Below are positions 7,151-32,134 of a DNA stretch of 32,581 nucleotides, piece after piece. Within the stretch, counting starts at the first letter, position 1. Each line of letters begins with the position of its first letter. The notes under the pieces are model-generated. The model saw nothing but the letters and a program-made list of their open reading frames with translations, did no database searches and was not told the origin of the DNA. Made by a program: the position numbers and the translations under genes. This stretch comes from Candidatus Hadarchaeota archaeon (lineage in GTDB: Archaea > Hadarchaeota > Hadarchaeia > Hadarchaeales > JAGGTB01): NCBI GenBank assembly GCA_964554215.1, contig CAZKND010000006.1:1-32581 (forward strand), read 5' to 3'.

Positions 7151-7268
7151 CTTGAATCCAAAAGTCTATTTTGACTCTATTAGTTATTATTGTTAAACAT
7201 AGGAACCGCTCTAAGCAATTAGTAAAGATTCTTTAATTTGTAAGGTCTACTCAAAAACTGGGGATACA

Positions 7269-7652
7269 TTGAAAAAAGTAAAACAAATGCTTATTTCCAT
7301 CCCTCTAATTTTTTCTCTCGCCCTAGTTATCGAAGCATTCAACATATGGGTTATTGGATGGTGGGAATTTCAAAGCAGATTAGCGCTCGGAAAAACACTC
7401 CTGATTTGGATAATTCTCGGCACGATTATAGGATCTTTAAATGTTTGGGAAAAAGAGAAAGCGATCGGACCAATAATCGCCTTATGGGGAATTTTCATAG
7501 AAACTATAAATCTCTATCTTCTGAATCTATGGACTTTTCCATCTAAGTTAACGATGGCAGGGACTTACATAGTATGGGTATTACTGGGATTGTCCATTTA
7601 TCTCGATCAAAAGACTCACCTAACAAAGAAATTTCTCAAAATTAAGAAGTAA
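7269..7652 (+). CDS. Four-TM membrane protein with an internal two-TM duplication (hypothetical).
   Basis: TTG start with GGGGA upstream. The halves NIWVIGWWEFQSRLALGKTLLIWIILGTIIGSL and NLYLLNLWTFPSKLTMAGTYIVWVLLGLSIYL align residue for residue. The nested ORF 7346..7546 is an out-of-frame overlap. Confidence 0.6.
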   Translation: MKKVKQMLISIPLIFSLALVIEAFNIWVIGWWEFQSRLALGKTLLIWIILGTIIGSLNVWEKEKAIGPIIALWGIFIETINLYLLNLWTFPSKLTMAGTYIVWVLLGLSIYLDQKTHLTKKFLKIKK

Positions 7653-7812
7653 ACCCTCCATTTTCTCCAGATATATTCTTAAGATGGCTCTATATCCTAA
7701 ATAAAATAATTTCCTCTTGAGAAAAGACTCTATCATTGCAATTAACACTGTAAAACTTCGAAATAATTATAAAAATGCCCTCATTACTAAAGGTCGAAGG
7801 GAGGTGTTACAT

Positions 7813-11850: not shown

Positions 11851-13026
11851 TTATTTGGAGAAGTATTCAACCATTTTCAAAAAAACCGCGTTAGTCCAAC
11901 CAAAGCCAGATTGTGTAGGATACCTTCCAATTCGACTCACCTTCCCTTCCTGGACATCGTATTTCTCCCAAAACTTTCCCGTGTCCTCAAAAATCTCTCG
12001 GCAAAGCTCAATCCACTTATTCGCTATTCTCTCAGCGTCCTCTTTATACCCATAATTGAGAAGACCTCTGAAAACTATCCAATGCAGAGGGGCCCACCCG
12101 TTCGGCCAATCCCATTGTCTTTCTTCATCCAGATACTTCTTGTCAGTTGTCGCTAAGCCGTAATCTTCTTCGAATAGGTCTAATTTCTCTTTCGCTCTTT
12201 CCGCCTGTTCTTCTGAGGCGAGTCCGGCCCATAGAGGGAAGTAACCTGCTAGGGAGTAGACGTTTGTTCTTTCCCCTGAACAGTGATCATAATCAAAGAA
12301 GAATCCTTTCTCGTCGCTCCACATATATTCGTCTATTAGTTCTTTTCTCCGGGAAGCTTTTTCTCCCCAGACTTTTTCCGCTTCGTCGTTTTCCAGTTCT
12401 GAATGGATGTAGGAGAGATCGGTTTCGTATTTATAGAGCAGAGCGTTTAGGTCGACTGGGTTTATGTCCAAGCATTTGTTGAAGAAGCGTGAAGTCCTGT
12501 CCCATCCTGATTCGTCTTCTGCTTGTTGATGGTAATGGGTTTGATCGAAATACCTGTTTAAACCGTTATCCGTAGTCCTCTTCCTCGAGTTCCAAACCTT
12601 TTCGTATTCTTTCTCAATGACTTCCACCTTCTCTTCAAGCCATTCCTTATCTCCGGTCTTTTTGTAAATCTCCGATACCATCGAGGAGAAGAATGGCGGC
12701 TGGGATTTCGCCAGATGGTAGAAACGATTGCTCGCTGGTACTATGTTATACTTCCCTATCAGATATGAGAAGTTCTCGACGACTTCTTTAGCCAGTTCAG
12801 TTCTATCCGAGGCTAATAGGCCTAGAATTATGAAGTAACTATCCCAATAATACATCTTTTTCTGGAACTCTTCGTGGTGAGAGGGAGCAAGATATCTTTC
12901 GGGAAGACCTATTAGGAGTCCGTCATCTTCCTCTGTCCTGAACGTAATTTTGTCCCAGTAATCTTCTATAAACTCCAAGGACTCTTCATGCCTTTTCTCC
13001 AGACCCAATGACGCTGATTCCATCAT
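11851..13026 (-). CDS. Trehalase, glycoside hydrolase family 37 (compact, cytoplasmic form).
   Basis: Both GH37 signatures are present: LPERYLAPS...MYYWDSYF (PGGRFxExYYWDSY-like) and ERQWDWPNGWAPLHW (QWDxPxGWAP), plus ESGWD. No signal peptide. Confidence 0.85.
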   Translation of the reverse strand: MMESASLGLEKRHEESLEFIEDYWDKITFRTEEDDGLLIGLPERYLAPSHHEEFQKKMYYWDSYFIILGLLASDRTELAKEVVENFSYLIGKYNIVPASNRFYHLAKSQPPFFSSMVSEIYKKTGDKEWLEEKVEVIEKEYEKVWNSRKRTTDNGLNRYFDQTHYHQQAEDESGWDRTSRFFNKCLDINPVDLNALLYKYETDLSYIHSELENDEAEKVWGEKASRRKELIDEYMWSDEKGFFFDYDHCSGERTNVYSLAGYFPLWAGLASEEQAERAKEKLDLFEEDYGLATTDKKYLDEERQWDWPNGWAPLHWIVFRGLLNYGYKEDAERIANKWIELCREIFEDTGKFWEKYDVQEGKVSRIGRYPTQSGFGWTNAVFLKMVEYFSK

Positions 13027-13171
13027 ATCTAAAAGACCTCTAAAATGTTTATCGACAAACCTATTCGATTTCTAATTCCCTTTTCTTTGATTATGATTCT
13101 ATATAACCATTATTAAAATAGAAATCTGAATCTTTTTTTGACAGTAAAAGTTAGGTATCTTGAGGATTCAC

Positions 13172-15208
13172 ATGAATTCAGATCCTGTGTATCTAGAATC
13201 GATCGATTCACTGGATGAGGTTATAGGTGTAGGCGATAAAACTTCTAGAAAACTTGAAACACATTTTGATTCCGAAAAGTCCGCACTGGAAAAAATAAAA
13301 AATGCCGACATTTTAGAAATTTCCAAAACACCTGGAATCTCTTTTGCCGATGCTTCCAGGATAGTGAAGAAGAACATAGAAGACGAGTATGGCTCCGATA
13401 AAATTTTAGAAACTGAGTCTCTTGAAAAAATCTATCAACGTTTATTAGATAAGATAAAGGACAGGGCCCGAACAAGCTACGGTGAAGCTAGATTAAACAT
13501 CTACTTTCCCACATCATCTGAGGAGAGAGTAAAAGAAGTAAGAGATTGGGTTAGAAAAGTTCTCGAAATAGATGTTCAAGGGAGTGTCGACGAGATAAGA
13601 AATGTGAAACCCATGGAAAAACCGAAGAACTTTGACGTTTTTGATAGGGTTATTTTGACCGAAGACTTCGAAACTTCCGAGAGGATTCAAGATAAGGTGT
13701 CGGGAATCCCGGTGGAAACCATTCAAAACCCTCAAGAAATTCGTAAATATCTCGAAGATTATCAAAATATCTTCATAGTTAGCGAAAAAATGAAGGATAT
13801 AGGGTTAGAATCCGAAAAAATCAGTCACTTGACACCTCCACTGAAAGATGTTACGAATATTTTTCCGGAGAAGATAATTTCATACTTTACGAGGAATCTA
13901 GCATCTATCAAAAGTAGTTTAGAGGTCTTCAAAAAAGTTAGAACTCCTCTGTTCCCTGATATTTCGGAGGAAAAAATAGAAAGATTAGAAAATCTCTTGG
14001 ATAAAATCGATTCAGACGGAGAGATAACGCAGAATGAAGGACTTAAAAGATTGAGAAGAGCTTCTGAAAATCTTACTCAGGTCATTGAAGAAAAAAAGGA
14101 GCAGGCAAACGACGAATTAGAGAAATTGGTTAGTGAAAAAGAAATAAAAATAGAAGGAACTGAAATAACCAGTTTATTAAAAAACAGAAAAAAAGCCGAA
14201 GAAATCGTGAGATCAGAATTATCCGAAGATTATGAAGAGATAATAGAAAGAATCACTGAAGAAACCATAGAAGACCTAAATTTGAAAGGTGAAGAAGAAA
14301 ATCTAGCGAAAGAACTGTTCCCTAACGAACTAAAGATTCCTCTAAAACCGGACGAAGAAATCAAGAAGAAACTCATCCGGAAAATAGACAGTAAGCTTTC
14401 TCAAAAGTCACTGAAATCGAAAAAAGAATTTGCAGAAGAACTGGAAGACTACAAAAAACTTTCAGAGAGGATAGTAGAGCTAGTTTTAGAAATCGACGCA
14501 GCTATTGCCATTAAGGAGTTTTCAGAAGATTTTGATATGGAGATGGCGAATTTAAATGATGAGTATACTGAGATAGTGAACGGTAGAAACCTTTTCATAG
14601 AAAACCCTGATCCCGTTGATTATAAGATAGAAAATGTCCGTCTTTTGACCGGAGTGAATAGCGGAGGTAAAACTTCCACCTTAGACTTGCTGGCGCAAAT
14701 CTATATCTTAACTCTAATGGGTTTACCCGTACCTGCAGACGAAGCCAAGATTTCCTCTGTGGAAAAGATCTACTACTATCGAAACATCAAGAAAACGATG
14801 AGTACCGGAGCTTTAGAACATATTCTCATTAGATTTAACAACCTCTTATCCTCGGACAAAAAGAAGCTAGTTCTGATAGACGAACTGGAAAACATTACAG
14901 AACCGGGGGCTAGCGCGAAAATAATGTCTGGTATTTTGGACATTTTAGAAGAAAGAGAGGATATAGCCATATTCGTATCCCATCTAGCTGACAAGATAAG
15001 AGAAAAAACGGAAAAAGAAATTCCTGTAGACGGAATTCAACCGCAGGGCCTGGATGAGAATCTGAATTTGAAGGTTGATAGAACACCTAAAAGGAACCTT
15101 CTGGCTATGAGTACCCCTGAACTGATTGTTGAAAAACTATCTGAAAAAAACGATTCTCATTTTTACAGGAAATTGTCCGAGAAGTTTGAAGACAAAAATC
15201 AGGATTGA
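13172..15208 (+). CDS. Archaeal MutS-like ATPase: N-terminal helix-hairpin-helix pair, long E/K-rich coiled coil, C-terminal MutS domain V. No mismatch-recognition domain.
   Basis: HhH-like VIGVGDKTSRKL and ISKTPGISFADASRIV. Walker A LLTGVNSGGKTSTLD (compare MutS GPNMGGKST), Walker B LVLIDELENITEPGAS, then IFVSHL. ATG 13172 has GAGGA 5 nt upstream; the track starts at TTG 13160. Confidence 0.75.
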   Translation: MNSDPVYLESIDSLDEVIGVGDKTSRKLETHFDSEKSALEKIKNADILEISKTPGISFADASRIVKKNIEDEYGSDKILETESLEKIYQRLLDKIKDRARTSYGEARLNIYFPTSSEERVKEVRDWVRKVLEIDVQGSVDEIRNVKPMEKPKNFDVFDRVILTEDFETSERIQDKVSGIPVETIQNPQEIRKYLEDYQNIFIVSEKMKDIGLESEKISHLTPPLKDVTNIFPEKIISYFTRNLASIKSSLEVFKKVRTPLFPDISEEKIERLENLLDKIDSDGEITQNEGLKRLRRASENLTQVIEEKKEQANDELEKLVSEKEIKIEGTEITSLLKNRKKAEEIVRSELSEDYEEIIERITEETIEDLNLKGEEENLAKELFPNELKIPLKPDEEIKKKLIRKIDSKLSQKSLKSKKEFAEELEDYKKLSERIVELVLEIDAAIAIKEFSEDFDMEMANLNDEYTEIVNGRNLFIENPDPVDYKIENVRLLTGVNSGGKTSTLDLLAQIYILTLMGLPVPADEAKISSVEKIYYYRNIKKTMSTGALEHILIRFNNLLSSDKKKLVLIDELENITEPGASAKIMSGILDILEEREDIAIFVSHLADKIREKTEKEIPVDGIQPQGLDENLNLKVDRTPKRNLLAMSTPELIVEKLSEKNDSHFYRKLSEKFEDKNQD

Positions 15209-15339
15209 GCTTTGCACTAAACCGAATACGATTCTTTCAAAACTGTCAAAACGAGAAATTCACATTACGTCTCTTTTCTACCATGCAAAAACAATAGGCA
15301 AAATAGATTAATCGAAAAAACAGAAGGTGTTACGGACAG

Positions 15340-16584
15340 GTGATTCTTATTGTAAGTTATCGCCGGAAGATGTTCCTGAAATTTTCTAGCTATGGATTTC
15401 TAAAGAATCTAAGATTTTTCGAACCGTTTCTTTACCTTTTCTTCTTGGCTTCCGGACTTTCCTACTTTCAAATAGGACTTTTGATAGCAATCCGGGAAGC
15501 TTTCGTGAACGTATTCGAGATACCATCCGGGATAGCAGCAGACCTCACAGGTAGGAGGAGGGTAATGGCCATAGCTTTTCTCTCCTACATGGTCTCGTTC
15601 ATCATATTCTACCTGTTCGGTAACTTTTTCATATTCATACCGGCAATGATTCTCTTCTCTCTGGGAGAAACCTTCCGGTCAGGGACTCACAAGTCAATGA
15701 TAATGGAACACCTAGACCGGGAAAACATGGAAGACCAAAGAGTGGACTTCTATGGAAAAACGAGAGCAGCTTCTCGGTTGGGTTCGGCCATCTCCGCCAT
15801 CCTAGCAGCTCTAATAGTGTTCTATTGGGGAGGTTACAACATAATCTTCCTTGCAACCTTAGTACCCTACAGTCTAGGTTTTGTCCTCATGCTCACCTAT
15901 CCGAAAAAACTGGACGGAGAAACCTCGAAAAGTCCAATGAGTGAAATGTGGAGTCATACAGTCAGTAGTTTCAAACAACTGATTTCCGAATCACACCTAA
16001 AGAATATGTTTTTGAACTCTTCAGTCTACGACGCATTTTTCAAAGTTTCTAAGGATTATCTATCCCCGATAGTGGAATCTTTCGCATTATCCATACCTCT
16101 ATTCTTCGGTCTGGCTGGAGAACAAAGAACCGCCATCATGGTCGGAATAGTTTACTTTTTCGTCTATTTGAACAGTTTCATATCTTCCATGAAGTCTTCC
16201 GACCTCTTAGAGAGAATAGGTAATCTTCCAAGAGCTCTGAACGTGTTATTTTTCTGCTTATCGGGTCTTTTCTTTTTAGTAGGGATATTTTTCAACTTGG
16301 ACATCACTATCCTTTCCATAATATCTTTCTTATTCCTCTACACTCTGAAAAACATCAGACGACCCATGGTGGTAGGTTATCTCAGTGACCATATAGAACG
16401 TCAGAAGAGAGCCACGCTTCTGAGCGCAGAATCACAACTTAAAGCCATCTTCGGAATGGTGATAGCACCTATTTTAGGATTCATCGCCGACGCTGCTGGA
16501 TTGGACTATACCTTCATCATCGGAGGGGTAATGCTACTCGTATTAGGACTGCTTCTCCGTATCAGCGAGCCGGAAAACGATTGA
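15340..16584 (+). CDS. Major facilitator superfamily transporter.
   Basis: About 12 hydrophobic spans. MFS loop 2-3 motif EIPSGIAADLTGRRRVM (G-x-x-x-D-x-x-G-R-R). GTG start with GAAGGTG upstream; alternative ATG at 15370. Confidence 0.75.
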   Translation: MILIVSYRRKMFLKFSSYGFLKNLRFFEPFLYLFFLASGLSYFQIGLLIAIREAFVNVFEIPSGIAADLTGRRRVMAIAFLSYMVSFIIFYLFGNFFIFIPAMILFSLGETFRSGTHKSMIMEHLDRENMEDQRVDFYGKTRAASRLGSAISAILAALIVFYWGGYNIIFLATLVPYSLGFVLMLTYPKKLDGETSKSPMSEMWSHTVSSFKQLISESHLKNMFLNSSVYDAFFKVSKDYLSPIVESFALSIPLFFGLAGEQRTAIMVGIVYFFVYLNSFISSMKSSDLLERIGNLPRALNVLFFCLSGLFFLVGIFFNLDITILSIISFLFLYTLKNIRRPMVVGYLSDHIERQKRATLLSAESQLKAIFGMVIAPILGFIADAAGLDYTFIIGGVMLLVLGLLLRISEPEND

Positions 16585-21163: not shown

Positions 21164-22006
21164 CTAACCTAAAATTCCACCGAGCTTAGCCCCTTCGTCT
21201 GAAATTTTAAATTTCCTAATCTTCTTACTGTGATCAGAACCTCTCATCTTCAGAACACTTATACTCTTATTGACCTCATTTTCCTCCTCGATATACCTCA
21301 GTAAAATAATTCCATCGGTCAAAGAACTCAATCTGAGGTCACCTGTCTTCATTGAACTCAAATGAGATTTTGAGTCCTCATTGAACATAGGCCTAGCCAT
21401 ATGGGTCATCAAACAAGTGATCCCTCTAGGTTTCAATATAGAGTTCAGCTCCAACAATAATTCCCTCAAATCATCCTTACTCATCTCAGCAGATGGAATA
21501 GAAGAAATCGAATCCACCACCATCCGCTCCACATCCACCGCATCAACTACATCTCTAACATCATGGAGAAACCTGTCAGGATAAGTATCTATCAAATTAG
21601 GCGTGATAAACTCCAAAAGACCATCATCCATATATTTTTCGAAATCCCAACCGTGAGATCTGGCAATGCTTCTAATCTGAGGTGTTGGCTCTTCTAGATT
21701 TACAAACAGAGCTGGCTCCCCCTTCTTCATCCCCTCAACTAAAAATTGCATTGCTAAAGTCGATTTCCCGGTTCCAGTATTACCTGATAAAATAATATTA
21801 TGCCCTTCGGGATATCCTCCATTAAGCATTTCATCCAATTTGTCTACACCGGTTCCTTTTCTATCTTCAAAATCTGTCTCGGCAATAGTCTTCCTAGGAA
21901 TTATTTTGGGATATAGACAAATCCCGTTGGATGTTATATTGAAATTTATCTCACCACTTTTGTAGTCAACCCCCCTCATCTTAAGCACATTTAAGGATCT
22001 GACCAT
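21164..22006 (-). CDS. KaiC-like RecA-superfamily ATPase, C-terminal fragment: tail of domain 1 plus complete domain 2.
   Basis: Begins MVRSLNVLKMRGVDYKSGEINFNITSNGICLYP, which is the C-terminal KMRG..H...F.I...GI element of a preceding KaiC domain. Domain 2 follows, with Walker A ILSGNTGTGKSTLAMQF, Walker B RMVVDSIS and a second SVLKMRGSDHSKKIRKFKISDEG. Confidence 0.8.
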   Translation of the reverse strand: MVRSLNVLKMRGVDYKSGEINFNITSNGICLYPKIIPRKTIAETDFEDRKGTGVDKLDEMLNGGYPEGHNIILSGNTGTGKSTLAMQFLVEGMKKGEPALFVNLEEPTPQIRSIARSHGWDFEKYMDDGLLEFITPNLIDTYPDRFLHDVRDVVDAVDVERMVVDSISSIPSAEMSKDDLRELLLELNSILKPRGITCLMTHMARPMFNEDSKSHLSSMKTGDLRLSSLTDGIILLRYIEEENEVNKSISVLKMRGSDHSKKIRKFKISDEGAKLGGILG

Positions 22007-22017
22007 CTTTCTCTCTC

Positions 22018-22617
22018 CTAAACATAATCCAATTCTATAATCCCATCTGAGATGAAATCCTCCACTTCAAAACGGGAGGAGTACTCCTTCTCTGAAATCA
22101 GAAAAGTCGTGCAACCTAAGCCACTGAGAACAGTTCCTAATCTAAAAATAAAATCCCTAAACAAACCCTTATCACCGAAACGTAATCCCGCAGCTGTTAT
22201 GGAATCTATCACTAATCTTTTAGCATCATAATCCTCAACAAAATCTCTAATTACATCTACAAGATTATCCACATCTTCCCTAACAACATCTTCACCGCCC
22301 TTAATCCCCAAAGCATCCATAATGCTACGAAGATCTGTGACCTTAATATTCCCTTCATTCAAAGCCTCCTCATCGAAAAAGTCCATAGAATTCATATTCT
22401 GAAGAGCTTTTTCAAAAGGCTCAGTAGCAGCTATATATATTCCTGATTCATCAAACTGCTTCTGACCTTCAAATAACCATTGCATTGAAAGAATCGTCTT
22501 ACCGGTTCCTGCTTTACCTCTCAGCAATACAACATGACCCTCTGGGATTCCTCCCTGCAAGGTCTCATCCAATCCATCTATACCTGTCTGTCTAACTTCC
22601 CTATCTAAATCGTTCAT
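22018..22617 (-). CDS. KaiC-like RecA-superfamily ATPase, N-terminal fragment: domain 1 lacking its KMRG tail.
   Basis: GIDGLDETLQGGIPEGHVVLLRGKAGTGKTILSMQWL (Walker A), RLVIDSIT (Walker B). It ends DGIIELDYV* just before the expected KMRG element, which is found in the -1 frame 11 nt downstream. Confidence 0.8.
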   Translation of the reverse strand: MNDLDREVRQTGIDGLDETLQGGIPEGHVVLLRGKAGTGKTILSMQWLFEGQKQFDESGIYIAATEPFEKALQNMNSMDFFDEEALNEGNIKVTDLRSIMDALGIKGGEDVVREDVDNLVDVIRDFVEDYDAKRLVIDSITAAGLRFGDKGLFRDFIFRLGTVLSGLGCTTFLISEKEYSSRFEVEDFISDGIIELDYV

Positions 22618-22883: not shown

Positions 22884-23387
22884 TCATCGATTAGTCCTAG
22901 ACTTTTCAAATATCCAAATCTTATAATTCACCACCCTAACATTCCCTCCTGCCTCAACCACAGTCACACCACCTTCCGAAGGAATACTCCCCCCATAATA
23001 GGCGTTTTCAGGATAAGAAACAGTCCACCTAGCAGTTCCACCATTATCCATCTCCAAACTCATTTCAAGAGCAGCACCTTTTCTCGGAGGGGATAAAAAC
23101 TCCAGCACATTTTCCATCCAGCTATGCAAATATTCATTTTCAACCCTGGGGTTCTTCAAAATCAACTGTTCCGCAGAAGCTTCAAGGGCCCCTACCCCAG
23201 GCCTAGGTTCAGAATGTCTCAAGGTCCCAGCCAAATTAATCCTCTGCATCTCTACTCTACGATTATTCGAAGCTTTGAGCGGGTTGATATTGTAACCGAA
23301 TAGAAGACTCACTGTGATTACAAGAAATAAAAACAGAAAGACAACTACCACTATATCTGAAACACCTTTCTGATCTAACTGTACCAT
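22884..23387 (-). CDS. Pilin-like protein with a class III (type IV prepilin-like) signal peptide; cassette position C'.
   Basis: N-terminus MVQLDQKG|VSDIVVVVFLFLFLVITVSLLFGY has a charged residue, then Gly, then a roughly 20-residue hydrophobic helix. GGAGGT lies 6 nt upstream. The start is nested 13 nt inside the preceding gene. Confidence 0.65.
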   Translation of the reverse strand: MVQLDQKGVSDIVVVVFLFLFLVITVSLLFGYNINPLKASNNRRVEMQRINLAGTLRHSEPRPGVGALEASAEQLILKNPRVENEYLHSWMENVLEFLSPPRKGAALEMSLEMDNGGTARWTVSYPENAYYGGSIPSEGGVTVVEAGGNVRVVNYKIWIFEKSRTNR

Positions 23388-23803
23388 GCTATAACCTCCA
23401 GTTTCGCGGGTTCTCTCCCCTCAGCCATTGTCACAGGAACGGAGATGGAACTTTTCATAGCGTTTCCAGGAGGCGAATTGTCAAAGTAAGCAATCTGTCC
23501 TCCGCTAAAATGTTCTAACCTAATTTTGTACTCGAAAGTCTGACCGGCTAGTTCTCTTTCAAAATCAATCTTCTCATTATCAAGCTTGTTCCTATCCAAC
23601 ATGTATTCCACCGGATTGTTTTCAGCTCCTCTTTTGACAAGGACCCTTGTCGATAAATCAGAAGCAATGCTGGTAGTTGCATCCGAAAGGGTAGTCATCT
23701 CCTGAACTCGCCTATTCTGCCTGTAAGCTGCCAGTGTAGAAGCTATGAAAGTGACCACGAATATTAGTATTATTAAAACTCTAAGTATTCGGGAAATCTC
23801 CAT
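23375..23803 (-). CDS. N-terminally anchored small protein (putative minor pilin / filament accessory); cassette position B'.
   Basis: MEISRILRVLIILIFVVTFIASTLAAY anchor. GGGAGGTCTGAGG lies upstream. The start is 2 nt after the stop of the preceding gene. Confidence 0.6.
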   Translation of the reverse strand: MEISRILRVLIILIFVVTFIASTLAAYRQNRRVQEMTTLSDATTSIASDLSTRVLVKRGAENNPVEYMLDRNKLDNEKIDFERELAGQTFEYKIRLEHFSGGQIAYFDNSPPGNAMKSSISVPVTMAEGREPAKLEVIAWYS

Positions 23804-23805
23804 CC

Positions 23806-24189
23806 TCAGACCTCCCTAACTTCTATCAAATACTCATCATTATCCTCATACAGACTAAATCTTAGATTATAAACACCGGCAGAAAAATTATTTTCCACAT
23901 AAGAATACTGATCCTTCACATCTAGAGTTTCGGTTGAACCATCAATGCTCACAGAATTCTCCTCAAATTTTAGTTGATATCCAGAAGGGACTTCTACCTC
24001 TAATTCAAAATTTTCCCGTGGGTTACCAGGGGTCAAAAAATTCTTAATAACTGCATCATCGATATCTTCCACAGCATCCTGTGCATCCAAATGCGCCTGA
24101 TAATCCTGAAACTGTCCATAACCAACTATGAAACCTAAAACAGAAATACTAGCTAAAACGACCAATCCTACCAATTTTAGAGCATACAT
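23806..24189 (-). CDS. N-terminally anchored small protein (putative minor pilin / filament accessory); cassette position A'. Paralogue of 28717..29070.
   Basis: MYALKLVGLVVLASISVLGFIVGYG anchor. GTGAGGA upstream. Shares V.LASI, IK...TP.N, NFE..V, LKFEE/G.N and G...L.F blocks with the 117-aa protein at 28717. Confidence 0.6.
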   Translation of the reverse strand: MYALKLVGLVVLASISVLGFIVGYGQFQDYQAHLDAQDAVEDIDDAVIKNFLTPGNPRENFELEVEVPSGYQLKFEENSVSIDGSTETLDVKDQYSYVENNFSAGVYNLRFSLYEDNDEYLIEVREV

Positions 24190-24211
24190 AAGTCCTCACA
24201 CTTATCTCGAA

Positions 24212-26173
24212 TTATACACCGATGACGCTCAAGAAGGAAAACCCTAGATAAGACAGAGTAAAGATCGTCGTTCCAGAGATTACAGCCAAAGGCACTTTAT
24301 CCCAGAACTCAATCGGATCCCTTCCTACCTTGATGACAGAAATATGTCTCACGACGATCAAAATCAAAGAGATAACAGTTATACCCATAACTAGAGTCAA
24401 AAGCGCCAACTGTCCCTCTGGAAGCGAACCCGTCAATAATGGGATACCCGACAATCCCGCTCCCTCTGCCGTTTGCTCAACAGATATAGAAATCTCACCC
24501 ATGAAATCCATAACCCAAACCGATAAAGCACAAACCACCGGCAATAGAATCAGTCCCATCATCCAAAGATTTCCCGTAGCATCACCTATCCTCTCTCTAA
24601 ACCTCCTCTCGACATCATTCAAAGTATCCAAAAAATCAGCCGCCTGCATAGAAGCCCTGCCAGCAGCTTTCTCAGAACCCTTCTTAACACGAGTTATCAC
24701 TCCCAACAGATTCGCCACAAGTGGATTGTATATATTACCTAACAATCCCGTCTCGAAAAACGCATAACTAGCATTGGTAGAAAACTTATCCATAGTATCA
24801 GTAGCCTGAGTCAAAATCCGCCCGACATCCGACCCCTCCATCAATCCAGAAGTCTCTTTCATAGCTTGCCTCATAGGTCGACCATCGATGATTCTCGAAC
24901 CGATCACGTTCAAAGCCATAGTCCAATCGCGAGTCGCTTCTCTAATCTGATCCCTAATCTCCGCTCTAGGCCCGACTTTCAAATGCGCATAAACGGCTAT
25001 ACCGCCGGTCAGACCCCAAACTATCCAGAAAGTATTCGGCCAAGCGACCAAAACAGACTCGGCGAAAATATCAGCTAAATAGAAGAATCCTGGAAGTGAA
25101 ATCAGGAGAAATGTGACTAGCGAAGGAATCCAAATCGAAACATTCCTTCCAAGAATTTTTGCCTTTCCGGAAGGGGGAACCCGAGGGTCATCTTGAGGGA
25201 TACTTGGAGGTGGAACGGTAGCAGGACGCTTACGTCCGATGAAAGTGGTAAAAGCAAGGAAACTTATGATAATCGCTGCTGCAGCTAAAGTGAAATACCT
25301 TATATCGATAAAGTTCATGCCAATCAGTCCAAAAATAGGCGACAGCCCTATAACCCCGACAATCACCAAAGAACCGAAAACCATGAATGTCATTGTCGGC
25401 ATCACTAACGAATCCAATCTAGAACCTAACTGTCTCTCCGCACTATCGAGAACTCTATCCGGAGCTTTAGCCACATCCTGCTGACGTAAAGTTTCTTCAG
25501 TCTGACCGGTTGAACGTAAAATATCAAAAATTGCCCTTCTCACACCCTCATCTATCTCACCCCAATTATGGGCTATTACTGTCAATAATTCTCTAACCGA
25601 TTCATAACTCCTCCTCTGATCCATCTCCAAAAATCCTTCTCGAATATCCTCCGCCAGTTTTCCATCGCTTGCATTGGAAGCAAAAATTGCAGCCCCTCTC
25701 AGATCCGGTCGATGATGAAGGGCAAAACTCATCAACATAATGGTTTCAATAGCCCTTGACTGAGCTTCGGACTTAGCTATATCAGCAGAGCTGACCGGAT
25801 AATAATAGAAAACTGCTCCGCACAGGCCTGAAAGCACAACACCCAAAATTGGAAGATACAATATCGAACTGAGTGAAGTCCCCAAGAACAATAAAACTAT
25901 CAATGGAACAATAGTTGCTATAATAGGCAGAAATATTGATGAAAAGAATCCGGCCCACCACTCTGCCGGCGTTACTCTGAGACCCGCCAATGAAATCTTT
26001 TTCCTGGTTTCCTCTTCTAACTCCATACCTTCAGTTAGGCTTCCAAAGATTAGCACTGAAAAACGGCAAATTTTTTCATAAAATGTAAGTGGCTCTTCTT
26101 CCTTTTTTTTAATTTCTTCCAAAATTTCTTTTACGTCTCGAGATACCTCCGGTAAAATATCCGGTTCTTTCAA
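24212..26173 (-). CDS. Polytopic membrane platform protein of the T2SS-F / TadC / FlaJ(ArlJ) / PilC family.
   Basis: 653 aa with a duplicated architecture: TM pair, about 100-aa cytoplasmic helical domain, then TMs. The TTG start overlaps the ATPase stop (TTGA), with GGAGGGTG upstream. Gene order (ATPase, then platform) is canonical for type IV filament systems. Confidence 0.7.
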   Translation of the reverse strand: MKEPDILPEVSRDVKEILEEIKKKEEEPLTFYEKICRFSVLIFGSLTEGMELEEETRKKISLAGLRVTPAEWWAGFFSSIFLPIIATIVPLIVLLFLGTSLSSILYLPILGVVLSGLCGAVFYYYPVSSADIAKSEAQSRAIETIMLMSFALHHRPDLRGAAIFASNASDGKLAEDIREGFLEMDQRRSYESVRELLTVIAHNWGEIDEGVRRAIFDILRSTGQTEETLRQQDVAKAPDRVLDSAERQLGSRLDSLVMPTMTFMVFGSLVIVGVIGLSPIFGLIGMNFIDIRYFTLAAAAIIISFLAFTTFIGRKRPATVPPPSIPQDDPRVPPSGKAKILGRNVSIWIPSLVTFLLISLPGFFYLADIFAESVLVAWPNTFWIVWGLTGGIAVYAHLKVGPRAEIRDQIREATRDWTMALNVIGSRIIDGRPMRQAMKETSGLMEGSDVGRILTQATDTMDKFSTNASYAFFETGLLGNIYNPLVANLLGVITRVKKGSEKAAGRASMQAADFLDTLNDVERRFRERIGDATGNLWMMGLILLPVVCALSVWVMDFMGEISISVEQTAEGAGLSGIPLLTGSLPEGQLALLTLVMGITVISLILIVVRHISVIKVGRDPIEFWDKVPLAVISGTTIFTLSYLGFSFLSVIGV

Positions 26174-28416
26174 TTAACACCCTCCAACCAGCTTTCCCAA
26201 TTGGATAGCGCTTCCTCATAATCCGGTGCATTTTGATCCACCTCGACAAAGTACTTGTCGTAAGCCTTAGTGACAAAAGGTAATTCCAAATATTTGTCAT
26301 CGTCTTCCTCTCTAGCCAACATCAATATTTCTGATTTCATTTTTGCCTCCGCTAATATTTTCTTCAATAAATCATCCGGATCGATAGCCAATCTCTCACA
26401 TTGTCTGTAAACTTTTCTAGAACCTCCGTCCTCCGGAGATAAGAAGCTGAGTTTTTCCGCAGCTTTTTCAACATCCAAATCTGTTAGATCGTAAGAATTA
26501 ACTTTCTCAATCCATTTGTCCGGACCTGAAAAGAGATTAGCAGGTTCAAGAATGTCTTCTGATCTATTATCGGAGAAAAGTTCAACATATTCCGGATCTT
26601 CAGTCCAATCCTTCAAAATTTCAGATACTTCAGTGATTCTCCGGATGGTACCTTCAGAAGTTTCAAACTTACCTGTACTCACGATAAAGTCCACATACTT
26701 GTAAGCCGCCTCATGGAGACCCATTATATTCACGACCAGATCATACATCTGTCTCTTTGTCCTAGCATGGAAACTTGACAATACCGGCTGACTACCTCTC
26801 CGAGCCGCCGCACCGAGTGCTGACTTCACAGCCTCCGTTGAACGGACCTCCGTAATAAGCCAATAGGCAGCACCACCCCGAAGGAAGGCATTTACCTGAT
26901 CCTGAAGATGTTCGGCGTCCATTACCCGAACATTCTCTAACTCATAACCTGTATCTAGGAAATCATCAAACTGAACTTCTTCAGTATCCTGGAATGTAAT
27001 AATCCTGTCTCGAGACCCAATCTCCGGAATTTGAGTAATTAGATAAGAAGTTTTAGCAGTTCCAATGTCTCCAATCGTAAACAAAGAGGAACCCATCCTA
27101 ATCATATTACTAACAAATGAAGATGCTAACGGGGTAATAGATCCCTTTTCGAAAAACAAAGGCTGTGTCCACGGATCTCCCCTTCTCTTACGGATAGCCG
27201 CAGCAGCAGAATTTTCAGTCCAAAGAACAGGATGTCTACTTATGAAAAGCCTCAATCCCAACTCCGGAATTTCAGCATCCAACTGAGGATCAGGCTCATC
27301 GAAAGTTCTACCCAATTTTGAAGCTAGAGTTTCTGCCAACCCCATCAGAGAGGGTGAATCCCAATAAATACCGGTTTCACAGTTCCCCCATTTCTGATGA
27401 ACAATCCTAACGGGCTGCTTTTCGGGCGGGGCCTCTACATAGATATCTGTTATGTTCTCATCCTTACTGATCGGTTCTAAAATCTTATAGTTCAACCACT
27501 TGGCCATCGTCTCCGCTAAGCTTCTAATCTTGTCTGATGGTAAATTCAGGTCTGATTTTTCTTTGACGATATGCAGCAGGGTGTTGTACCAGTCTTCTGC
27601 GAATCCTCGGATCCGGGAGGGTTCGGCAAATCGAGCGTGGGAAGGTGCCGTGTCTATCTCCATCTTGTAGGCTTCGTAGAGGAGGTCGACTTCTTCTTTC
27701 GACAGGTCGAATTCCGGTATTTCTAAAGAGTAGAGAGGTACGGGTCTGTCTTCCTGTTTGTATATTTTCACTTCTCCTCTTTCTTCTTGGAGCGGGTAGG
27801 AGTCCAATAGTTCCAAGTCCCCTTCTGGAGGCTTCCAAACTCCTTCTACGAAAAACGGTTGGATCTTGACATCTAAAACATCGTTATAGTTTGAAGAATC
27901 TAAATCTTTGAAACCTGGAATGCTTTTCAAAGAATCTTTTATTCCGTTTATCAGTGCGAAAAAGTTCTCATCTGAACATTCTGAGCATTCTCCATTTGAT
28001 TGTTCCTCTTCTTCTTTCACCTTGTCTAGAGGTGAGAAATCTTGCGGATTTTTCATTATTTCGGGCCATATCTCTTTCATCTTCTCCATTCGCCGGTCTA
28101 TGCAAGATTCACATTTATCTAACTCCGATTCTGGACTATAGTACGTTCTGTCCCATACATTTGCCTTCAAAACTCCGAGAGTTCGGGCTATCTTTGAGAT
28201 TTTAGAAGTGGAGTAAATATTATCGAAACTAGTGCTCAAAACGACTCTTTCGACTTCCTCCTCACCTGACAAACCTTCAAATACGCATCTTCGACAATTT
28301 TCCGAATCCAGAGAACTTGCCTCCACACACCCATCACAGTCACACTTAGCTACATTTATTGGGCCTGATTTGGTTATATCAGAGCGAGACTCAAATCTTT
28401 CGGTTATAGGTTCCAT
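26170..28416 (-). CDS. Type II/IV secretion-family hexameric ATPase (ArlI/FlaI / PilB / TadA / VirB11 superfamily) with a long Cys-rich N-terminal extension and a C-terminal extension.
   Basis: Core alignment to the family by motif: ITDIYVEAP...VRIVH; AIRKRR; Walker A-like FTIGDIGTAKTSYL; Asp-box/Walker B RIITFQDTEEV; LRGGAAYWLITEVRSTEA (compare LR..PD.IhhGEhRG.EA); His box SSFHA. 748 aa against about 500-550 for typical family members as I recall them. Confidence 0.8.
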   Translation of the reverse strand: MEPITERFESRSDITKSGPINVAKCDCDGCVEASSLDSENCRRCVFEGLSGEEEVERVVLSTSFDNIYSTSKISKIARTLGVLKANVWDRTYYSPESELDKCESCIDRRMEKMKEIWPEIMKNPQDFSPLDKVKEEEEQSNGECSECSDENFFALINGIKDSLKSIPGFKDLDSSNYNDVLDVKIQPFFVEGVWKPPEGDLELLDSYPLQEERGEVKIYKQEDRPVPLYSLEIPEFDLSKEEVDLLYEAYKMEIDTAPSHARFAEPSRIRGFAEDWYNTLLHIVKEKSDLNLPSDKIRSLAETMAKWLNYKILEPISKDENITDIYVEAPPEKQPVRIVHQKWGNCETGIYWDSPSLMGLAETLASKLGRTFDEPDPQLDAEIPELGLRLFISRHPVLWTENSAAAAIRKRRGDPWTQPLFFEKGSITPLASSFVSNMIRMGSSLFTIGDIGTAKTSYLITQIPEIGSRDRIITFQDTEEVQFDDFLDTGYELENVRVMDAEHLQDQVNAFLRGGAAYWLITEVRSTEAVKSALGAAARRGSQPVLSSFHARTKRQMYDLVVNIMGLHEAAYKYVDFIVSTGKFETSEGTIRRITEVSEILKDWTEDPEYVELFSDNRSEDILEPANLFSGPDKWIEKVNSYDLTDLDVEKAAEKLSFLSPEDGGSRKVYRQCERLAIDPDDLLKKILAEAKMKSEILMLAREEDDDKYLELPFVTKAYDKYFVEVDQNAPDYEEALSNWESWLEGVN

Positions 28417-28716
28417 TTTTGTTCCCCTTTTACATTAATGACTAATCGTTTTGGATTTTATCCTTCAGATCAAACGAGTTCATCTGTTATGTTTTAAAAG
28501 GCTGTTTTAATTTATGTGTTTTCTTTTTACCTGGTTTGATGAGTGGAAGAACCATTCAATCTATTTCTCCAAAAAGATGAAAAATAAAGAGTTTAAAAAG
28601 CTATTTCAAGAACAGAAAGACCTCAAAATTATCAAAATTCCAACATGGAAAATTATCTTAAAAACATAAGCCCATAGACAGATTAATCTAGAATAACTAA
28701 AATTAAAAGGGATAAA
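28417..28716. promoter_or_regulatory. Divergent intergenic control region between the two filament operons.
   Basis: 300 bp and very AT-rich, the longest non-coding stretch in the window. It separates divergently oriented first genes. Contains TATA-like TTTTAAAAGG (28492-28501) and TTTAAAAAG (28592-28600), which sit in similar 18-19 nt contexts exactly 100 bp apart. Exact promoters were not determined. Confidence 0.5.
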
Positions 28717-29070
28717 TTGTCCACAGCAATGAAATTATTGGCTAGCGTCATCCTGGCTAGTATCTTCCTCACCATCGCCGGTGCTATAGGAGTTCGACTG
28801 AACACTCAAATAAATAGAGAAGAATTCAAAAGCGAGAGCGAATCTCTAGCAAACACTATAAAGGGTGGCATTACCCCAGAAAACAATTTCGAAATAACAG
28901 TCCCCAACGATTGCAAATTAAAATTTGAAGGGGAAAACATAATCGCTGAAATAAATGAAGTTCAACATCATTATCCTGCAGGAGTTCCGGTCTACGGAGA
29001 TGATTTAGAGCCTGGAACTCACAAATTAAACTTCAAAGAGAATGAGAGAGGAGTGACAATATATGGATGA
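28717..29070 (+). CDS. N-terminally anchored small protein (putative minor pilin / accessory); cassette position A.
   Basis: MSTAMKLLASVILASIFLTIAGAIG anchor. AAGGGA upstream of TTG 28717 (alternative ATG 28726). Paralogous to 23806..24189; see the motif blocks listed there. Confidence 0.6.
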   Translation: MSTAMKLLASVILASIFLTIAGAIGVRLNTQINREEFKSESESLANTIKGGITPENNFEITVPNDCKLKFEGENIIAEINEVQHHYPAGVPVYGDDLEPGTHKLNFKENERGVTIYG

Positions 29071-30082
29071 TAAAGGAAAGATTATCTGGAGACTCCTCTT
29101 CGGAGTCGTCATGGCGGCCCTGTTGATAGGCGTATTGTTAACCTACACTTACACCCAAAGGCAGTTCGCCGAAGAAAAAGAAGCTCAAAACTTAGCCGAC
29201 GACCTATCGAAAACTGCATTTTCAGCCATAGATAGGCAGGAAAGATCTATGACCCTTCCAACAGAGATAGGCGATTCATCTTACAGATTGAAAGTGGATG
29301 AAGATCAGAACGAGTTCCAGATTGAAATTTCAAAAGAGGGAGAAGAAAACAAGACGTTTCGTTCTACCGCGGGAATCAACCTTGAAAACAAAGGGCAGGT
29401 CCCCGACCCCGGAGAAGAGATATATTTCAGAGGGGATGGAGAAAAAGTCTTCTTCTCAGAGGACCCAATAGAAACATTGCCGTCGGATGGAGATGTGAAC
29501 GGGATAGAATATAATTGTCCGGAAAAATTCTACGAAAAAAACAAAAATGAACCGGAAAACTCTACAGGCCTAATTTACGCTTATTTTTACGCAAGGGACC
29601 AAATTGGGGCTGATGTCGATGTTGAGGAATACAAATGGGAGAGTTCTGACAAGTTATTGGTTAAGATTTCTGGAGAAACTTACAGAATCGAATGGAACGA
29701 TTTGCCCGCAGATGAATTTTCTGGTAAAAAAGTAACAAACATAACAGAACCCGAAAACCCTCCTGAAAACGGGTTTAAAGAACCGGGCTATTCGATTAAA
29801 GAAGCCTATGAAGGCGGATGCCTCTACTCCCCGGAAGAAGCAAAAAGCAACATAATGAGAAGGACTTGGGAAGACTATGACGGAAATATAGCTGAATTAT
29901 CCAACATACAATTCGAAGAGGATATTACCGCCACCATAATCGAAACGGATGTCTCAACATTTTCAACATGGAGATTGGAATTCGAGGATTACACATTTTA
30001 CCACGGAACAATGCCTTGGAAACCGGAAGACAACGATCCAGGATTCGCTTTTTACTCGATCGATCATTTGGAGGTGGTGTGA
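29063..30082 (+). CDS. N-terminally anchored 339-aa acidic protein (putative filament-associated / adhesin-like); cassette position B.
   Basis: MDDKG|KIIWRLLFGVVMAALLIGVLLTY. GAGAGGAGTGA upstream. The start is nested 8 nt inside the previous gene. A post-anchor Y.Q.R...E...DLS segment resembles the 142-aa protein at 23375..23803. Confidence 0.6.
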   Translation: MDDKGKIIWRLLFGVVMAALLIGVLLTYTYTQRQFAEEKEAQNLADDLSKTAFSAIDRQERSMTLPTEIGDSSYRLKVDEDQNEFQIEISKEGEENKTFRSTAGINLENKGQVPDPGEEIYFRGDGEKVFFSEDPIETLPSDGDVNGIEYNCPEKFYEKNKNEPENSTGLIYAYFYARDQIGADVDVEEYKWESSDKLLVKISGETYRIEWNDLPADEFSGKKVTNITEPENPPENGFKEPGYSIKEAYEGGCLYSPEEAKSNIMRRTWEDYDGNIAELSNIQFEEDITATIIETDVSTFSTWRLEFEDYTFYHGTMPWKPEDNDPGFAFYSIDHLEVV

Positions 30083-30759
30083 TGGATTTCTCAAAACCCG
30101 GAGAGAAGGGAGCAGCACCGACACTCATAGTCTTTATCCTGTTCGTAATGGTGTCGACAACACTCGTGATTAGTTACATTCAAACAACCGAAGAATCAAC
30201 AGTCAGCAGCATCCAAATGGCTAACGCATCCGACACAACTAGAGCTACTCTTAATTCGATAAACTCCGAGTTGGAAGAAGCCCTCAGAAAATCGGCTACT
30301 GCTGCAATGTACGATGTGGGTATGGGTGGAGGAACTATAGACGAGGTGGAAAATAAGACGAAGGAGTATATGAACAATAGGATAGAAAGAGGCTGGGATT
30401 ACGCCAATTTGGACACTAATATCCCTAAAATAGGCGAAGGTACAAATAATTCCATAGAATTCATAGAACAGCCAAACGGAAGTCTGTTGATTAGACTAAG
30501 ATTGGAAGACAGCGAAATCAAGCATGCATTAGGACCCACAGCCTACGGAACCTATCTACAGGTTAATTTATTCCCTAGATTCAGGAGAATAGAAAGTTTA
30601 GCAAAACAGATCGACAAAGATTTAGAGGACACTGACGATCTTCAAAGTTTAGAGGATAACTACAATGAGAAATACAAATACGAGGGAATAAAAGTCGAAA
30701 TAGAACCCGATAGCATAATCGTAAGAGATCTTTACGCCGGAAGAAGAGTAATAGTTTAA
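30082..30759 (+). CDS. Pilin-like protein with a class III signal peptide; cassette position C.
   Basis: MDFSKPGEKG|AAPTLIVFILFVMVSTTLVISYI resembles the archaeal pilin N-terminal motif (RG-x-S-P-V-I-G-hydrophobic). ATG 30082 overlaps the upstream TGA by 1 nt and has GGAGGTGGTG upstream. I treat the track's longer ORF from 29968 as a spurious 5' extension. Confidence 0.65.
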   Translation: MDFSKPGEKGAAPTLIVFILFVMVSTTLVISYIQTTEESTVSSIQMANASDTTRATLNSINSELEEALRKSATAAMYDVGMGGGTIDEVENKTKEYMNNRIERGWDYANLDTNIPKIGEGTNNSIEFIEQPNGSLLIRLRLEDSEIKHALGPTAYGTYLQVNLFPRFRRIESLAKQIDKDLEDTDDLQSLEDNYNEKYKYEGIKVEIEPDSIIVRDLYAGRRVIV

Positions 30760-30770
30760 AAAATTAAACC

Positions 30771-31487
30771 TTACAGTATTTCTTTCAAATCTTCCAAACT
30801 ATCTACTTGTAAATCCGCTTTTTCACTGTCGTGCCAATCACGACGTTTGACTAAAATAGTCTTCATCCCAACAGCGTTCGCTCCCTTAATATCAGTGAAA
30901 GGCTTATCCCCAACCATACAAATTTTCCCGATCTCAACCCCCAACTCTTCAGCAACCATGCTAAAACATTCAGAATCAGGCTTCGGTTCTTCAGTGTCTT
31001 CGCCGGCAACGACTACAGAATCAAAAAGATCATAGAAGTTTAAAGGTTCAATTCTGTCGATTTTAGAACCTCCAAAATTATCCGTATCGGTCAATAGACC
31101 GAGTTTGTAACCTTTAGAATCTAAATAATCAAGGACAGACTCCGAACCCGAATAGGGTACCGCTGAAACCTCATAGTTATCCCAATATATATCGGTCAAC
31201 TCTTCAACCAAATCGGAATCCAACTCGTCCTCTATACCTATAATGTCAAAAAAAGATGGCCACCACTCATCTCTATCATACTCCCTCTTACGATTCTTTT
31301 CGTCGTCAAAATCGGACAGTTTTTTGACCAATTCATTAAGTCCCATGTCCAACTCTTCGGAATATCTCCTGAAAATTTTCCCTGCCACGGCCTTTTGAGC
31401 TGCTTCTAAACCTTTCTGAGCATCGAGAAGGGTTTCATCCAGATCGAAAACCACGGCTTCAACATCTTCGAAATCGGAACCACTCAA
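30771..31487 (-). CDS. HAD-superfamily hydrolase (subfamily IA-like phosphatase).
   Basis: Motif I VVFDLDETLLD (DxDxT), motif II LGLLTDT, motifs III/IV K...VGDKPFTDIKGANAVGMKTILV. The TTG start overlaps the upstream TGA (TTGA). Confidence 0.85.
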   Translation of the reverse strand: MSGSDFEDVEAVVFDLDETLLDAQKGLEAAQKAVAGKIFRRYSEELDMGLNELVKKLSDFDDEKNRKREYDRDEWWPSFFDIIGIEDELDSDLVEELTDIYWDNYEVSAVPYSGSESVLDYLDSKGYKLGLLTDTDNFGGSKIDRIEPLNFYDLFDSVVVAGEDTEEPKPDSECFSMVAEELGVEIGKICMVGDKPFTDIKGANAVGMKTILVKRRDWHDSEKADLQVDSLEDLKEIL

Positions 31488-32134
31488 ACTACCTCACCAC
31501 CACAAAATTCGGTGACATAATCCAGCATGATTTCTCTAGCCTTGTCCAATTTTCCACCCACACCAGGGATTCCGCAAACCATCAGCAAAACATCCGTCGT
31601 ATCAGTGGTGATCTTTGTCTCTTCAGAATCTCTGTAAGGGTAGATAGCTACTATCTTCTCGGAATCCGAAACCACGATTTCATCACCTGAGAGTTCCTTA
31701 GGTTCGTCCATTCCGATTCCTCGAAAGACCTCACCTCTCTCCGAAAAACGCAACTCCAAATCTCCTTCTAATGTCTCGTAATCGAAAGCGGCCAAAGGTA
31801 TCTCTGACTTGATAGAAGCCAGGTTGTAAGCATCGACAAGGGTATTGATCGATGGAATCTCTTTCCCTTGAAGGATCCTTCGGATGAGAGCTTCGGAAGC
31901 CGGTCTCGTTTTAGTAGGGTCTATCTCCAAATCCCAGAAAAAATCTCGATACTTCCGGAAGATGGAAACATCTTTCAATTCGTCCAAATCTCTCTTCTCC
32001 CGGACTTGCGAAATCACTTCATCCTTAAACTCTTCTAACTCCCCCGAACCACTCTCGATGTTTACTCCTTCTACCCGGTTTGTCAAGACTTTCAATCCGG
32101 GGAATTTTTCTCTAACCTTTTCGCTATATTCCAA
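31484..32134 (-). CDS. Stand-alone B3/B4 domain protein (PheRS beta-subunit editing/tRNA-binding domain-like).
   Basis: TRPASEALIRRILQGKEIPSINTLVDAYNLASIKSEIPLAAFDYETLEGDLELRF ... IVVSD ... VAIYPYRDSEETKITTDTTDVLLMVCG matches the B3_4 pattern as I recall it. GGGTGTGA lies upstream of the TTG start. Confidence 0.7.
   Translation of the reverse strand: MEYSEKVREKFPGLKVLTNRVEGVNIESGSGELEEFKDEVISQVREKRDLDELKDVSIFRKYRDFFWDLEIDPTKTRPASEALIRRILQGKEIPSINTLVDAYNLASIKSEIPLAAFDYETLEGDLELRFSERGEVFRGIGMDEPKELSGDEIVVSDSEKIVAIYPYRDSEETKITTDTTDVLLMVCGIPGVGGKLDKAREIMLDYVTEFCGGEVV

Follow-up and report, generated by a model that had tools for sequence, protein, structure and literature searches.

We analysed a 32,581-nucleotide stretch of DNA (the window; positions 1-32,581 of contig CAZKND010000006.1, assembly GCA_964554215.1) from a Candidatus Hadarchaeota archaeon, which encodes a secretion ATPase, a polytopic membrane protein and six small membrane-anchored proteins. 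The small proteins are encoded as two trios, A, B and C on the plus strand and A', B' and C' on the minus strand, and a sequence-only reading had taken the trios for mirror-image copies of one three-gene cassette. Our analyses indicate that the locus is most probably a type IV-filament cluster of a Hadarchaeota type, in which A and A' are old paralogues and the gene order results from shuffling and not from duplication of a cassette. The motor would consist of the FlaI/GspE-family ATPase and the coupled polytopic membrane protein, and the six small proteins around it, each with one N-terminal hydrophobic helix, would represent at least five families. All six open reading frames (ORFs) were recovered in the ORF list at the positions and lengths first reported, and each product has one single N-terminal hydrophobic segment.

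Synteny was drawn from 113 related loci in all. For the profiles, loci were taken from species-representative genomes (47) and metagenomes (62), with up to 10 kb on each side of the ATPase gene. From the ORFs called in these loci we built seven families (A, A', B, B', C', C and a further small protein, X). Because shared hydrophobic helices can inflate profile scores, we cut the N-terminal helix off all families and compared the resulting hhalign score, hereafter the helix-cut score, with those of 20 column-shuffled controls.

Profile comparisons identify A (28717..29070, plus strand; 117 aa) and A' (23806..24189, minus strand; 127 aa) as genuine ancient paralogues of one pilin-like family, in which A, with its N-terminal anchor and pilin-like shape, represents the A subfamily. 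BLASTP aligned the two proteins with 34 % identity across 76 residues (E = 2e-5), and hhalign aligned the two families over their full length (117 columns, 98.8 %, E = 4e-17). The helix-cut score was 63.7, compared with 10.5±1.5 for shuffled profiles (max 14.2; z = 35; probability 97.5 %). The similarity first seen by eye therefore stands clear of shuffled controls in profile-profile alignment, and all four sequence blocks quoted as shared are present and lie on conserved columns of the 22-sequence family alignment.

A neighbour-joining tree placed A, A' and the N-terminus of B in three separate clades, each spread across many genomes. When 1.84 billion representative proteins were searched exhaustively by HMMER with the combined A+A' profile, only 39 matched at E ≤ 1e-3, namely 23 A-type proteins, 13 A'-type proteins and three marginal large repeat proteins. 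The A- and A'-type matches are about 112-133 aa long, save one A-type protein of 196 aa. Given the clades and these counts, the family is small and lineage-restricted, and its split is older than the diversification of the sampled Hadarchaeota.

The three repeat proteins (P0126, P0127 and P0129; 571-2292 aa) contain repeated segments that weakly match the A/A' beta domain (E 4e-4 to 9e-4), with the matches spanning profile positions ~54-119. These matches hint that this beta domain may be an Ig-like or beta-sandwich module of a generic type.

An AlphaFold2 model of A' from a 35-sequence multiple sequence alignment was obtained with a predicted local distance difference test score (pLDDT) of 92 and a predicted TM score (pTM) of 0.76. 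It has a continuous helix at residues 2-52 followed by seven β-strands, and this modelled architecture of a 51-residue N-terminal helix and a beta domain fits a pilin-like protein. Searched against PDB sequences, the A/A' profile gave nothing meaningful, the top match being an archaeal flagellin N-terminus (E = 0.044). Motif inspection of the family alignment found no [KR][GA] cleavage motif in A or A'.

B (29063..30082, plus strand; 339 aa) and B' (23375..23803, minus strand; 142 aa) are likewise anchored, and B is as acidic as had been stated (isoelectric point 4.3; 72 D+E vs 33 K+R). The proposed homology between them was not borne out. BLASTP gave E = 0.3 over the transmembrane helix only, hhalign gave 12.7 % and E = 0.0023 with 24 transmembrane columns, and the helix-cut score of 18.0 falls inside the noise of the shuffled controls (12.8±2.6, max 19.4; z = 2.0). 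The 'DLS(K/T)' segment that was said to follow the helix in both proteins is unconserved in both family alignments, with 'DDLAKT' in B and 'NxLVL' in B'.

The duplication also implied that the members of each pair would be mutual closest paralogues. Instead, the closest partner of B is A, with a helix-cut score of 35.3 (12.6±2.1 for shuffled controls, z = 10.9) and an hhalign match of 94.8 % (E = 5e-8, 114 columns) that aligns A with residues ~5-130 of B. A' comes second (23.5 vs 12.7±1.8, z = 6.0) and B' last, in the noise. Residues ~130-339 of B form a conserved domain rich in W, Y and P that has no known relatives. B would thus be a tandem relative of A to which a C-terminal domain of ~200 aa has been added. 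(Full-length B was also aligned with the A/A' family in MAFFT, but the last strands of A were misplaced and this alignment was not used for modelling.) As judged from these alignments, B' is a separate family, unrelated to B beyond the transmembrane helix. When the family profile of A was compared with that of B', hhalign gave 91 % (E = 1e-6, 93 columns) and the helix-cut score was 22.5 vs 11.0±1.9 (z = 6.1). The [KR][GA] cleavage motif is absent from B and B' in their family alignments, again by motif inspection.

C (30082..30759, plus strand; 225 aa) and the pilin candidate C' (22884..23387, minus strand; 167 aa) do carry the class III-like N-termini that had been attributed to them, EKG|AAPTLIVF and QKG|VSDIV, and this [KR]G-hydrophobic start is all that they share. 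Their supposed homology found no support: BLASTP returned nothing (E = 32), hhalign gave 1.6 % and E = 0.031 over 22 columns, and the helix-cut score was 15.0 vs 12.9±1.8 in shuffled controls (z = 1.1). In the C' family alignment G8, S10 and D11 are invariant ('KG|VSD'). C has 'KG|AAPTL' and a conserved G[AS]A, and with a mean column identity of 53 % it is the best conserved of the small proteins. Every locus that holds C holds exactly one copy, never two. Profile searches of C' found no PDB relatives, with no Pfam match above threshold either, and the C profile found nothing meaningful among PDB sequences.

X is a protein of ~150 aa with an S/T-rich Ig-like domain and the class III N-terminus 'RG|VEP', which makes it, from its sequence, the best candidate for a major pilin. 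By motif inspection, a short charged leader ending in [KR]-[GA] and followed by ~20 hydrophobic residues occurs in C', C and X; the three are unrelated families of class III-signal-peptide-like proteins. In most relatives the X gene lies between the platform gene, which encodes the polytopic membrane protein, and A' (for example L026:14241-14696, L002:5816-6286 and L004:4175-4663; L numbers denote the related loci). It is absent from this position in the window, where only 22 nt (24190-24211) separate the two genes, and in L048 (14 nt), and no X homologue was found elsewhere in the window.

Two further types of X-like gene were seen. In some Hadarchaeota, a divergent second X-like gene that lacks the RG|VEP start lies directly upstream of the ATPase gene (L023:3164-3661, L035:7476-8009, L036:6468-6974, L080:5648-6193 and L086:4571-5161). 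A 706-aa protein with an X-like domain is encoded in L020 (13219-15339, minus strand) and L076 (10405-12525, minus strand), on the opposite strand and ~2.5 kb past the end of the X-A'-B'-C'-C operon.

None of the six small proteins or their family members reached Pfam or NCBIfam thresholds. Below threshold, four of 14 B family members match Pfam DUF7266 (best E = 3e-5; B of the window scores 17.9 bits with a cut-off of 27.6). B' matches DUF7285 in four of 19 members (20 bits vs a cut-off of 27) and DUF7287 in two of 19, and one of 17 C' members has a sub-threshold match to DUF7289. These matches fall outside the transmembrane helix, and a remote homology of B, B' and C' to the DUF72xx families is possible. 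B, B' and C' each match a different DUF, which is a further argument against homology of B with B' and of C with C'. No publication was found under the DUF72xx family names.

Synteny revealed how these genes are arranged in relatives. The sequence-only reading would have relatives carry one or two cassettes; they show instead X-A'-B'-C'-C, C-B-A, convergent arrangements, B-A alone or B alone, with a single C. In 16 loci the genes form one co-directional operon, ATPase-platform-X-A'-B'-C'-C, which is the most frequent of the complete layouts. These include nine species-level genomes (L011, L013, L016, L020, L023, L024, L025, L036 and L043), and no A or B gene was found in the retrieved flanks (±10 kb) of the 16 loci. 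As C' and C neighbour each other within one operon, C is not a duplicate of C'.

The A-B pair would be a separate two-gene module, equally old, and, with respect to the ATPase and platform genes, it is found in five or more different places. An A-B-C operon divergent from the ATPase gene occurs in the window, L026, L003, L005 and L049, and A-B-C operons lie on independent short contigs in L111/L112 and L114. In L008, L044, L045 and L063, B-A on the minus strand is convergent with C on the plus strand, several kb downstream of the motor genes and past unrelated genes. L029 and L105 have B-A with no C nearby, and L037 and L039 have only B, upstream of the ATPase gene. L026, whose ATPase is 81 % identical to that of the window, has both C-B-A and X-A'-B'-C', and L048 and L049, relatives at 92 % identity, share the layout of the window, likewise without X. 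The mirror order in the window is a lineage-specific arrangement of shuffled modules and not the scar of a segmental duplication. The apparent symmetry is thus a by-product of one old gene duplication and rearrangement. In the lineage of the window, the single-copy C would have moved behind A-B, producing a coupled A-B-C operon divergent from the ATPase gene, and X would have been lost from the locus.

We propose the following mechanism. C', C and X would be cleaved by a prepilin peptidase whose gene lies elsewhere, and the motor of ATPase and platform would pull the cleaved proteins out of the membrane and polymerise them. Because they lack the cleavage motif, A, A', B and B' would remain uncleaved and serve as minor-pilin-like subunits for priming, tip formation or anchoring, and the extra domain of B is a candidate for a distal or adhesive part.

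A different role for these four proteins is an alternative that we regard as unlikely: they could be membrane-anchored assembly or stator proteins like FlaF/FlaG or PilN/PilO and not filament subunits. FlaF and FlaG are a paralogous pair of the archaellum, anchored and with a beta domain. The absence of the [KR][GA] motif from A, A', B and B' would suit such a role, as would the transmembrane helix and beta domain in the model of A'. Against it, FlaF/FlaG was found neither by profile search of PDB sequences nor among the 50 Foldseek matches listed, and the continuous 51-residue N-terminal helix is more typical of pilins.

Equally unlikely is that A-B and X-A'-B'-C' are interchangeable modules that share C and one motor and serve different filaments or tips. 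L003 has only C-B-A beside its ATPase-platform pair, the nine species named above have only X-A'-B'-C'-C within ±10 kb, and L026 and the window hold both modules with a single C. Moreover, archaeal ATPase/TadC pairs have been proposed to serve different pilin sets (PMC4858521). Read in this way, the lineage of the window, with both modules, X lost and C re-attached to A-B, might be midway in switching, which we consider slightly less likely still. However, with ±10 kb in view, the 'missing' module may be encoded elsewhere in any of these genomes. The ATPase-platform pair has no small genes nearby in 41 loci, so pilin-like genes are often encoded remotely.

It is very unlikely that one A-B-C module was duplicated in inverted orientation and that B/B' and C/C' then diverged past sequence recognition. 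What stands of the proposed inverted duplication is the ancient paralogy of A and A'; B/B' and C/C' are unrelated above noise. Both trios do run from a small anchored protein through an anchored protein to a class III-like protein, and the weak similarity of A to B' (91 % over the full length; helix-cut z = 6) could be counted in favour of a duplicated module, as the anchored proteins may all be distant kin. But C' and C are neighbours in the 16 single-operon loci, and no locus has a second C. By helix-cut score B is closer to A (35.3) and A' (23.5) than to B' (18.0, in the noise), and the main operon of relatives has five small genes and not three. In several lineages, C is missing beside A-B or is encoded on the other strand. 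Nor is there an inverted DNA repeat between the trios, as a recent duplication should have left; only chance matches of 16-24 nt were found, a comparison that is uninformative for an ancient event. Finally, hydrophobic-helix composition or chance can be dismissed as the source of the likeness of A and A'. The BLASTP alignment does include the transmembrane helix, but the helix-cut score is still 63.7 vs 10.5±1.5, and the alignment is collinear and full-length over 22 and 35 sequences.

Several observations weigh against a type IV-filament cluster shaped by shuffling. The divergence of B/B' and C/C' could exceed the reach of profiles of 14-25 sequences. A Foldseek search of PDB with the A' model returned no pilin, FlaF or FlaG (best E = 0.39, TM ≤ 0.29); its top-ranking matches, all at E ≥ 0.39, were to SusE, a VirB8 domain and GFP-like barrels. 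The single-sequence AlphaFold model of C has a pLDDT of 55.5, too low for a fold search. No prepilin peptidase gene is present in the window, and Pfam T2SSF matched none of 13 orthologues of the membrane protein. As each ATPase gene was viewed with ±10 kb, A-B may sit elsewhere in the single-operon genomes, and X-A'-B'-C' elsewhere in genomes of the L003 type. The functional roles of all parts are those that we infer.

Many features of the filament cluster are familiar. A census of archaeal type IV pili (T4P) describes loci that contain five or more minor-pilin-like genes, pilin genes prone to duplication and motors serving different pilin sets, as well as highly diverged TadC derivatives, Cys-rich N-terminal ATPase extensions and KaiC-family neighbours (Makarova, Koonin & Albers 2016, PMC4858521). 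As most features of the locus are described there, the phenomenon as such is already known. 'Hadesarchaea' and 'MSBL1' each have 0 occurrences in the text of the census, and Hadarchaeota lie outside its data set (PMC4858521).

Comparison with archaeal T4P loci, such as Epd of Methanococcus maripaludis, shows that they resemble the present locus in the VirB11/FlaI-family ATPase with a coupled polytopic protein, about five helix-anchored small proteins, pilin duplication, module shuffling and an occasional KaiC neighbour. In contrast to them, the families here lack Pfam, NCBIfam and PDB relatives above threshold, no class III cleavage motif can be recognised in four of the six small proteins and no T2SSF/TadC domain can be detected in the membrane protein, and the ATPase is unusually long (748 aa) with a Cys-rich N-terminus.

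The type II secretion system (T2SS) pseudopilus (GspG with GspH-I-J-K) and ComG combine an ATPase, a platform, a major pilin and four minor pilin-like proteins that are distant paralogues. The operon logic is the same here, including one minor protein that an extra domain has enlarged (GspK there, B here). The present locus differs in having no sequence or fold match to these systems, an archaeal host, non-canonical N-termini of A, A', B and B', and a detachable A-B module apart from the motor operon. FlaF/FlaG of the archaellum are similar as paralogous, anchored, beta-rich proteins near a FlaI-type ATPase and a FlaJ-type protein. However, they match neither in sequence nor in structure, A and A' are in different operons here, and the locus has no archaellin gene and, apart from a non-conserved KaiC gene, nothing equivalent to FlaH. 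By analogy, we infer that A, A', B and B' may be comparable to GspH-K, ComGD-G or archaellum FlaF/FlaG.

These results correct the reading of a mirrored cassette to that of a modular type IV-filament cluster, typical of archaea, in which one pair of pilin-like paralogues is old. They define seven families of small proteins without annotation (X, A, A', B, B', C' and C) and their conserved order, in a pilus-like system that was found here only in Hadarchaeota, an uncultured subsurface phylum. C emerges as a universal single-copy component, and the membrane protein of the motor is flagged as lacking a detectable T2SSF domain. The current understanding of type IV filaments is not overturned.

The secretion ATPase (26170..28416, minus strand; 748 aa) belongs to the GspE/FlaI/CpaF superfamily. 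It passes the gathering cut-off of Pfam T2SSE (28.4 bits vs 24.9), and its PDB matches include 2OAP (Archaeoglobus GspE; E = 2.5e-15), CpaF and FlaI. With the NCBIfam FlaI equivalog it scores 71.8, far under the cut-off of 550, and it is therefore not an archaellum FlaI orthologue. All orthologues found come from Hadarchaeota, Hadesarchaea or MSBL1 assemblies. Residues ~1-50 (28270-28416, minus strand) form a Cys-rich N-terminal extension (C25, C27, C30, C41 and C44), in which C27, C30 and C41 hardly vary among 27 orthologues. This stretch may be a zinc-binding extension. A similar N-terminal extension has been noted for a Thermoproteales T4P ATPase (PMC4858521).

The polytopic membrane protein (24212..26173, minus strand; 653 aa), presumed to be the platform (a FlaJ/TadC analogue), is translationally coupled to the ATPase, directly behind which it is encoded in about 85 loci, and has ~6-7 hydrophobic segments. 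Its presumed role follows from its position, its invariant coupling to the ATPase and its polytopic topology. Searches of PDB sequences with the protein itself and with a 13-sequence profile found no relative. The protein is either a FlaJ/TadC that has diverged extremely far or a membrane partner of another kind for the T2SSE ATPase.

A', B' and C' are tightly packed behind the genes for the ATPase and the membrane protein on the minus strand. Farther downstream lies a frameshifted gene for a two-domain KaiC-like ATPase (21164..22617, minus strand; Pfam KaiC E = 6e-47 and 8e-56). Its frame shifts at about 22006-22018, whereas the 92 %-related L048 has an intact 485-aa ORF (6296-7750), and the split gene is either a pseudogene or an assembly error. 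A FlaH-like core role for this gene was considered and rejected, since it is conserved only in the nearest relatives; it is probably a regulator or a neighbour and not a conserved part of the system.

The A and B genes overlap by 8 nt, and the stop of B and the start of C share TGATG, with GGAGGTG just before it. A-B-C is therefore a translationally coupled operon. It is separated from the divergent ATPase operon by 300 nt of AT-rich intergenic DNA (28417..28716), which presumably holds the promoters of both operons. A sigma-70 promoter and terminator scan gave 28 promoter-like sites, close to the 20.6±5.2 of shuffled sequence, and its model is not applicable to archaea. The genes for a HAD-hydrolase and a B3/4-domain protein that flank C are syntenic between the window (30771-32134, minus strand) and L026 (6187-7553, plus strand), so the position of the A-B-C operon is stable in the chromosome of this lineage.

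In L031, a classical archaeal pilin with 'KRG|VSPVV' (13024-13458, minus strand) adjoins an ATPase-platform pair of the Hadarchaeota type. The same locus encodes a second, shorter T2SSE-type ATPase (14744-16447, plus strand) followed by a 591-aa ORF. With the extra pilin and ATPase, two different T4P-like systems therefore stand side by side in L031. For the host of the window, the low G+C content and the acidic proteins suggest a halophilic member of the Hadarchaeota.

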